The notes under the pieces are model-generated. The model did no database searches. It was given only the letters and a program-made list of their open reading frames with translations, and was not told the DNA's origin. Of a stretch of DNA of 43,500 bases, positions 42,231-43,500 are shown in pieces (the stretch's first letter is position 1; the number at the start of each line of letters is the position of its first letter). Origin of the DNA: Escherichia coli (GTDB taxonomy: Bacteria; Pseudomonadota; Gammaproteobacteria; Enterobacterales; Enterobacteriaceae); NCBI RefSeq assembly GCF_003334255.1, contig NZ_QOWU01000047.1. The stretch is one strand, 5' to 3'. Made by a program: the position numbers and the translations under genes.

Positions 42231-42377
42231 TACTGCTCCTGAGCGGTTTACAGGAGTAAGTGTAGACGTTGAGAAATGATATTTGTGAAGTTAATCCTGT
42301 TGTAGCAGGACAAATTTACGAAAGCCTGCTCCCCGCAAGGACTGACGTCAGGTAGTTTCTAACCATAGCTGCCCTTT

Positions 42378-43139
42378 CTATTCAAACGTGAAATCAATAA
42401 GCTCATCAGGGACATCGCAAACAATATGAAGACGGGTTTCTTCTCTGCCGTGACTCTTTTCACTAATTGCGTAACTGTCATGCTTGGGATTATTTAATTC
42501 TTTCAGCGGAAATTTTTCCTCGAAGGCTTTATTTAGCCGCCCCTGGTTTCCTTTTACAGCGAATAAATAATCACCTCCCTGTTTTTGTATCTTCTCTGCA
42601 ATATCTTTCTGGCAACCCATCGCATCAGTTGTGATGATTTTTCCTTTAATATCCAGCATGTTAAGAAGTTCAGGGATAGCTGTGATCTCATTGGATTTCT
42701 TATCCGTCTTGATCTGTCCGATGACCAGACTGTGCATTGTTGAGAACGCACTAATGACATGAATCGCTCCCTTACGGCGACTCTTGTCATAAGAATGCCG
42801 GTGTATTTTTCCATCAATTGCGATGACGTCTTTATCATCTGAAGAATGGTAGTCAAGCATCCAGTTAATAAAGCTCTCATGAAATTTCGCAGGACAGATA
42901 CAGGATACAACTCTGGCAATGGTATCGTGAACAGGAATACCATTTTCAAAATCACCATATTGCTTCAAAAAATCGGGATGTGTTTCCCCAAAATCCTCTA
43001 TATCTTCCCAGCCTTCTGCACCAGAAATAACGGCACAAATAGTCAACAGTAGAATATCCGATAATTTATGTTCCACTTTCCAGGCTTGTCTGTAATCGGG
43101 GATAATAGAAATATGTTCCATCAATTTTTTAAGTTCCAT
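42378..43139 (-). pseudogene. ybfD: H-repeat-associated protein: N-terminal 253 aa of an ISAs1-family DDE transposase (C-terminus degenerate)
   Basis: [60 protein letters not shown]... matches the H-repeat/ISAs1 transposase N-terminus; full-length members are ~378 aa, and the downstream sequence retains C-terminal homology out of frame. Confidence 0.8.
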
Positions 43140-43269
43140 TTTGTTCTCCTTAATTATGTAAGAAGTATTTGATCATGTATAAGCAATAAAAAACAGCTTC
43201 AGGTAATAAGGAATATCTCAATTTTTAAACATAAAATGCGAATTATTTAGTACAAAAAGCAGGGAAAGA

Positions 43270-43500
43270 TTACGAAAGCCCGCTCCCCGCAAGGACTGAC
43301 GCGAGATAGTTTCTATCCATGGCTGCTTTTCGCATCTTACGTCTTAACCCTGCCTTGAATACCTTATCATTCGTTAAAATATTAATAGCGATGTGCCGTA
43401 TCCCTGAAAATAATTCTGCGGCGTTTCCTCTTCTTATTTTGCAGTCGTCTTCATTCATTACCACGTCCAGACGCCAGTGCAGCTTATTCTCCACGTGCCA
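43270..43500 (-). pseudogene. C-terminal end of a second H-repeat/ISAs1-family transposase (partial, 5' part beyond window end)
   Basis: ORF ...[73 protein letters not shown] is the conserved ISAs1 C-terminus; reading frame is open to the window edge. Confidence 0.75.

Follow-up and report, generated by a model that had tools for sequence, protein, structure and literature searches.

The prototype of the ISAs1 family of insertion sequences is ISAs1 of Aeromonas salmonicida, and the ends of elements of this family start with CAGGG (ISfinder). Within Escherichia coli, three tandem defective H-repeats of the K-12 RhsC element, H-rptC1-C3, were reportedly described in 1993 by Zhao, Sandt, Feulner, Vlazny, Gray and Hill (J Bacteriol 175:2799). 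An intact H-repeat, H-rptB (yhhI, beside rhsB; locus L002), is 1291 bp long and has one 378-aa open reading frame (ORF) and both inverted repeats. Its ends, CAGGGAAAGATCA and CAGGGCAAGATTA, are complementary at 11 of 13 positions, and the CAGGG start is seen on them. Transposition of H-rpt has not been observed (PMC3032704).

The window analysed here is a stretch of 43,500 nucleotides of E. coli DNA. Its end is almost certainly the right edge of the RhsC island, carrying head-to-tail dead H-repeats (ISEc1, ISAs1 family), in an E. coli near to K-12. We take the array to be H-rptC1, H-rptC2 and H-rptC3 of RhsC, which correspond respectively to ybfQ, ybfL and ybfD and are called C1, C2 and C3 below. 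The feature is already known, being annotated as ybfQ, ybfL and ybfD in every reference genome. It has the locus, the sequence and the gene order of K-12 H-rptC1-C3, and the only differences from MG1655 amount to 2 nt. Its significance lies mainly in correct annotation: it marks the right boundary of the RhsC island and accounts for the annotation of ybfD and ybfL as pseudogenes or putative transposases.

The likeness of the copies to H-rptB (ISEc1) consists of ~96% nucleotide identity over the retained parts, the CAGGG inverted repeats and the single-ORF layout. H-rptB, however, is complete, whereas C3 lacks 24 bp and a further 313 bp and has a stop in place of W254, and C2 has a stop in place of Q18. 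With the ISAs1 family at large the copies share the match to the family profile NF033564 and the DDE_Tnp_1_assoc plus DDE_Tnp_1 architecture; they differ in being remnants, and a search for direct repeats at their flanks gave none.

The right edge of the RhsC island

The last 3 kb of the window hold, all on the - strand, phr (40306-41724), ybgA (41721-42230), a 253-aa ORF (42378-43139; ybfD) and an ORF that runs to the window edge (43270-43500; the end of ybfL). The final 1270 bp (42231-43500) are 100% identical to several E. coli chromosomes, that of strain J53 included, and 99.8% identical to MG1655. Both nucleotides that differ from MG1655 lie in ybfD. Codon 170 (42631) encodes Thr170 (ACA) in the window, as in yhhI, and Lys170 (AAA) in MG1655; codon 171 (42627) is ACT in the window, again as in yhhI, and ACC in MG1655, a synonymous difference. 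The two changes are 4 nt apart, adjoin the conserved TTDAMG motif and have their derived state in MG1655, where either a multi-nucleotide mutation or gene conversion over a short tract may account for the pair.

Elsewhere, the window has one fewer copy than J53 of a ~91-nt tandem unit (~18289-18381), and the two differ by 24 mismatches over 30 kb. This puts the source strain near to both J53 and MG1655, with identity to neither. The Rfam scan returned matches to naRNA4 (REP/BIME-derived) at 18215-18377 and 22749-22819. At the gathering threshold it also identified the Lys/Val tRNA array with RtT repeats (1-586), the CpoB/ybgF intercistronic RNA thermometer (1513-1651) and the sRNA ES036 (CssrF; 40201-40243), which lies directly downstream of phr. 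The tRNA array, the thermometer and ES036 are all known features of this K-12 region. The same scan gave no RNA family match in 42231-43500.

Extension beyond position 43500, which the initial annotation had proposed as a check, was made through a genome identical over the final 1270 bp, which has a single mismatch to the window in the 12 kb before them. It passes through the rest of the ybfL pseudogene, ybfQ, ybfC, an RHS tip pseudogene, ybfB and rhsC, and on to ybfA and the kdp operon. The genes follow one another in the same way in MG1655 (ybgA, ybfD, ybfL, ybfQ, ybfC, Rhs tip, ybfB, rhsC). In the identical genome, PGAP calls all three H-repeat copies ISAs1 family transposase and marks ybfD as a pseudogene, 'missing C-terminus'. 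The H-repeats are preceded by rhsC, ybfB, the Rhs tip and ybfC in this genome and in MG1655 alike. They therefore have the position of an Rhs accessory component, between core genes and downstream of the rhs core ORF and its displaced tips. The window edge had been suspected of abutting an Rhs region flanked by H-repeats; it does adjoin RhsC, but the copies do not flank the island: they are within it, at the right edge.

The position of that edge was set by the empty site of Nissle 1917, in which ybfA lies directly beside ybgA and the ybfA terminator hairpin falls at the island boundary point. Homology to RhsC-less strains stops at 42268, and the island has its right-hand limit at 42268|42269. 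On the ybgA side, 42231-42268 (- strand) is the core-genome leader of ybgA, 38 bp upstream of its ATG and the last sequence common to RhsC-less strains. On the island side, alignment of the empty site and other island variants identified 42269-42305 as a 37-bp spacer that is not H-repeat. H-rpt homology begins at 42306, which places the right end of the H-repeat 76 nt upstream of ybgA. A reduced version of this arrangement is seen in strain XJ34 (L008), in which ~34 bp of the H-repeat right end and the 37-bp spacer lie beside ybgA and are followed by a SymE-family type I toxin gene and Rhs fragments.

Because the island ends 38 bp upstream of the ybgA start, the promoter context of the ybgA-phr operon must differ between strains with and without it. 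No promoter-like site was found on the - strand of 42231-42400, and a scan of 42100-43500 found no terminator-like site between ybfD and ybgA. Promoter-like sites in 42100-43500 number three, compared with 3.5 expected, and carry no weight. Only one of them (43181-43153) is upstream of ybfD, in a scan that did not exceed chance. The short core leader of ybgA and the lack of a terminator-like site would suit a remnant kept for outward transcription of ybgA-phr. Against such retention, B2 strains without the island, Nissle among them, still have ybgA-phr, and the promoter-like sites are no more frequent than chance; its probability is given below together with that of a retained YbfD protein.

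Anatomy of the H-repeat copies

The copies were mapped by blastn and MAFFT against the 1291-bp H-rptB. The initial annotation had described tandem ISAs1-family remnants, and the head-to-tail arrangement of ISAs1 copies is borne out; there are, however, three copies and not two, and the second is full length, with its Q18 stop outside the window.

Copy C3 occupies 42306-43259 on the - strand. Its 954 bp consist of H-rpt positions 25-913 joined to 1225-1291, with 96.4% identity to H-rptB over 889 bp and 86.6% over 67 bp. The first 24 bp of H-rpt are missing, and hence also the left inverted repeat; the 5' untranslated left part of the copy (43140-43259, - strand) begins at H-rpt position 25. The ybfD ORF (42378-43139, - strand) encodes a truncated transposase of 253 aa and ends at a TAG (42378-42380, - strand), a nonsense change of Trp254 located two codons before the deletion junction. 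The TGG form of codon 254 is carried by yhhI, ybfL and strains L005 and L015. At the junction itself (42371/42372, - strand), 313 bp are gone, corresponding to H-rpt 914-1226 and yhhI codons 257-361. The two blastn segments of C3 overlap there by 2 nt, a GC microhomology. As 313 equals 3x104+1, the deletion shifts the frame. What follows is a 67-bp right-terminal block (42306-42372, - strand) that comprises 2 nt of codon 363, the 15 whole codons 364-378, the stop codon and the right inverted repeat, the first 3 nt of which are that stop codon. In C3 this block is now out of frame and untranslated. The right inverted repeat (42306-42318, - strand) is degenerate by comparison with the ends of H-rptB and C2, reading CAGGACAAATTTA on the + strand.

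The window ends inside C2, the ybfL pseudogene, of which it holds the last 241 bp (43260-43500, - strand). Complete C2 spans H-rpt positions 1-1291, with an actual length of 1290 bp after a 1-bp deletion in the leader, and was killed by a CAA to TAA change at codon 18. Its right inverted repeat (43260-43272, - strand) reads CAGGGAAAGATTA on the + strand and overlaps the TAA stop of ybfL (43270-43272). The ybfL ORF within the window (43270-43500, - strand) covers codons 303-378 and the stop. At the boundary 43259|43260, the right end of C2 abuts C3 at position 25, head-to-tail. C1 (ybfQ), which lies outside the window, is represented by the first 381 bp of H-rpt only (positions 1-381).

A repeat search of the window recovered the segment common to C2 and C3 as a 69-nt repeat with 86% identity and a spacing of 954. 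The window contains two occurrences of a 32-nt core, whereas 100 shuffles gave an expectation of 0.00. The homologous block proper measures 67 bp (42306-42372 and 43260-43326), and the C2 version is still in frame. The shared 3' segment of ~55 bp in the initial annotation is thus real, although its intervals (42318-42375 and 43268-43325) were ~4 nt out of register and ~12 nt short at the outer end. Alignments to yhhI and ybfL agree with its being translated in the second copy and untranslated after the first, because the 313-bp deletion shifts the frame and the TGG to TAG change lies two codons upstream. Of the two modes of decay offered for this, frameshift or deletion, the second is correct: there is no simple frameshift, and the lesion is the 313-bp deletion with GC microhomology together with the W254 stop. 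The suggested alignment to an intact ISAs1 transposase, for which H-rptB/yhhI served, located the deletion, the nonsense codon and the inverted repeats.

A conserved 3' segment that begins a few bases after an ORF and lies in another frame is also what a live two-frame transposase would present, with the segment fused to the 253-aa ORF by programmed frameshifting or read-through, in the manner of the IS1 and IS3 families. The probability of this reading is close to nil. Intact members of the family have one continuous 378-aa ORF. In C3, 313 bp with the most conserved C-terminal block are physically gone, a mutated Trp codon (TAG, compared with TGG in other copies) terminates the ORF, and the left inverted repeat is missing.

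Assignment to the family was based on NF033564 (NCBIfam 'ISAs1 family transposase'; 314 positions, cut-off 70 bits). YbfD matches profile positions 1-220 at 282.7 bits, well in agreement with its original description as the N-terminal 253 aa of an ISAs1-type transposase. The 76-aa ybfL ORF at the window edge matches the last 42 positions (273-314; E 1.6e-15), and its 57.1 bits fall under the cut-off because it is a fragment only. It had been read as the conserved C-terminus of another copy, and rightly: ybfL codons 303-378 are identical to the YhhI C-terminus there and hold the conserved block. In Pfam terms, YbfD has a complete DDE_Tnp_1_assoc domain (PF13808; residues 8-94) followed by a partial DDE_Tnp_1 domain (PF01609; residues 102-232, model positions 3-139 of 200). 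YbfD retains about two thirds of the DDE domain, which in the intact K-12 paralogue YhhI extends over model positions 3-200.

The remaining characters of an intact element are unevenly preserved. Neither copy has an uninterrupted ORF of ~378 codons, C3 on account of W254 to TAG and the 313-bp deletion and C2 on account of Q18 to TAA. CAGGG inverted repeats are present at both ends of C2 (CAGGGAAAGATCA and CAGGGAAAGATTA) and not at both ends of C3. No direct repeats or target-site duplications flank H-rptB or the C1-C3 array. C2 and C3 are remnants of ISAs1-family members, with the sequence characters of the family and without the integrity of a working element.

The 313-bp deletion removes a conserved C-terminal block (YhhI residues 302-314) that, by analogy with IS4-like DDE transposases, should carry the presumed catalytic Glu. 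In ybfL, the Glu306 codon is at 43489-43491. A PDB sequence search with YhhI returned no matches at E <= 1, so the placement of this Glu rests on the conserved motif; ISAs1 is absent from 'IS4 family goes genomic'. Since C3 has lost the left inverted repeat and the C-terminal catalytic block and carries a premature TAG, its sequence predicts that it would neither make an active transposase nor be open to mobilisation.

Distribution of the deletion and variation among strains

The junction was counted with a 250-bp query that ran from unique ybgA sequence through the right end and across the deletion junction, at a coverage of at least 80%. The deletion junction lies next to ybgA in 3091 of 5426 complete E. 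coli genomes (57%) and is missing from the other 2335 (43%). The K-12-type C2|C3 junction is found in 1428 of the 5426. Ten loci picked at intervals down the similarity rankings, J53 included, were mapped; L001 is the window-identical K-12-type reference, and L006 and L008 fall outside the junction mapping. Every H-repeat located 76 nt from the ybgA start in the mapped loci has the same 913|1225 junction, which is identical in nine loci of other strains, including L004, L005 and L012-L016.

This recurrence bears on the reading of the truncation as a sequencing or assembly artefact, in which a single intact transposase gene was broken or repeats were collapsed. The region is repetitive, with a median of 5 H-rpt places per E. 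coli genome, and short-read assemblies can mis-join repeats. Yet the identical junction with its unique ybgA flank is present in those 3091 complete genomes, MG1655 among them, and sits at the same position in all nine other loci mapped for it, which makes an artefact extremely unlikely. The outcome that the initial annotation had itself set against its interpretation, a single intact gene truncated by sequencing error, is likewise at odds with so widespread a C3-specific junction.

In L004, L005, L015 and L016, the same junction occurs despite different Rhs tips and a single H-rpt copy. The deletion is therefore older than the array in the window. The arrays themselves vary. In the K-12 type, complete C2 (1-1291) is joined to C3 from position 25; in L013 (strain 2014C-3011), C2 is cut at position 1219 and abuts a C3 whose left end is complete. 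C2/C3 recombinants occur in L012, as the only copy, and in L014, where C1 precedes the recombinant; L009 has C1-C2 with no C3, and L011 one full-length copy. Such variety is as expected from homologous and illegitimate recombination among direct repeats. The K-12-type and L013 junctions could both derive from an ancestral perfect head-to-tail dimer, in which a right repeat met a left repeat, via independent small deletions of the ends that touched.

We propose that an H-rpt copy first sat 76 nt upstream of ybgA. The 313-bp deletion would then have arisen early, by illegitimate recombination at the 2-bp microhomology, before the carrier lineages diversified. Point mutations, frameshifts, IS insertions and homologous or unequal recombination between tandem copies would have followed as later, lineage-specific events.

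Transposition of C2 into C3 was considered as an origin of the array and rejected. The overlap between C1 (1-381) and C3 (from 25) is 357 bp, much longer than a target duplication, and C1 is of the C2 sequence type, which also contradicts this origin.

K-12-type strains and L013 keep the 253-aa ybfD frame whole; independent breaks are seen in six of the nine other strains sampled. L004 has an extra frameshift, the C2/C3 recombinants L012 and L014 have the Q18 stop, L015 has a stop at E65, L016 has a frameshift and a stop, and L006 has an IS5 insertion. In L005, the junction is read through to give 282 aa. A further sign of decay is T170K in MG1655, beside the TTDAMG motif. The locus thus offers an example of tandem IS-remnant decay, with one old shared deletion followed by lineage-specific stops, frameshifts, IS insertions and recombination between copies.

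Selection, expression and the state of ybfD

Two proteins resemble YbfD in form only, the Tn5 Inh protein and IS1 InsA, each an N-terminal transposase part without the complete catalytic domain. By comparison with them, YbfD might be a retained functional truncated transposase that binds DNA and inhibits or regulates the other H-repeat copies. Its 253-aa ORF is intact in K-12-type strains and L013, its DDE_Tnp_1_assoc domain is complete, transcripts have been reported (PMC4032248), and the ratio of non-synonymous to synonymous changes in its lineage is below the neutral expectation. On the other side, its frame is not kept among strains, the six independent breakages above being the case in point; the junction is absent from 2335 of 5426 genomes; and the locus tolerates 4-kb insertions (PMC7797564). 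Retention of YbfD in this role, or of the remnant for outward transcription of ybgA-phr, is very improbable.

The mRNA detected and found to be up-regulated in long-term stationary phase is of ybfD type, and the probes may cross-hybridise with other H-rpt copies (PMC4032248). The 4-kb insertions were made in the ybfL-ybfD intergenic region, which serves as a neutral site for the integration of foreign DNA (PMC7797564).

Pairwise pN/pS among H-rpt copies is low, at 0.10-0.24. The K-12 ybfD lineage has 8 private synonymous and ~9 private non-synonymous changes, and although these counts are small, the non-synonymous changes are fewer than the ~4:1 ratio expected from site counts under strict neutrality. 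The low non-synonymous share is explained equally well by divergence that predates inactivation or by conversion of the gene from live copies.

We conclude that ybfD is in a state of neutral decay, the evidence against a function outweighing the evidence for one. Neutral decay is preferred because the ORF is so often broken in other strains. Partial activity of the remnant is very improbable, whether as a truncated YbfD that modulates other H-repeats or as read-out transcription that supplies or modifies expression of ybgA-phr (photolyase). If it were real, promoter donation would affect the ybgA-phr operon in the 57% of E. coli that carry the remnant.

The private changes of ybfD are unevenly placed. 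Seven of the ~9 non-synonymous changes fall within 42 codons (82-123, ~42771-42896): S82C, C89S, R95L, C97Y, T112I, L113H and R123K. The L013 orthologue has only R123K, the other six clustered changes being absent there. Such clustering points to a patch converted from an unsampled variant of the H-repeat, or to mutations that arose in a local burst.
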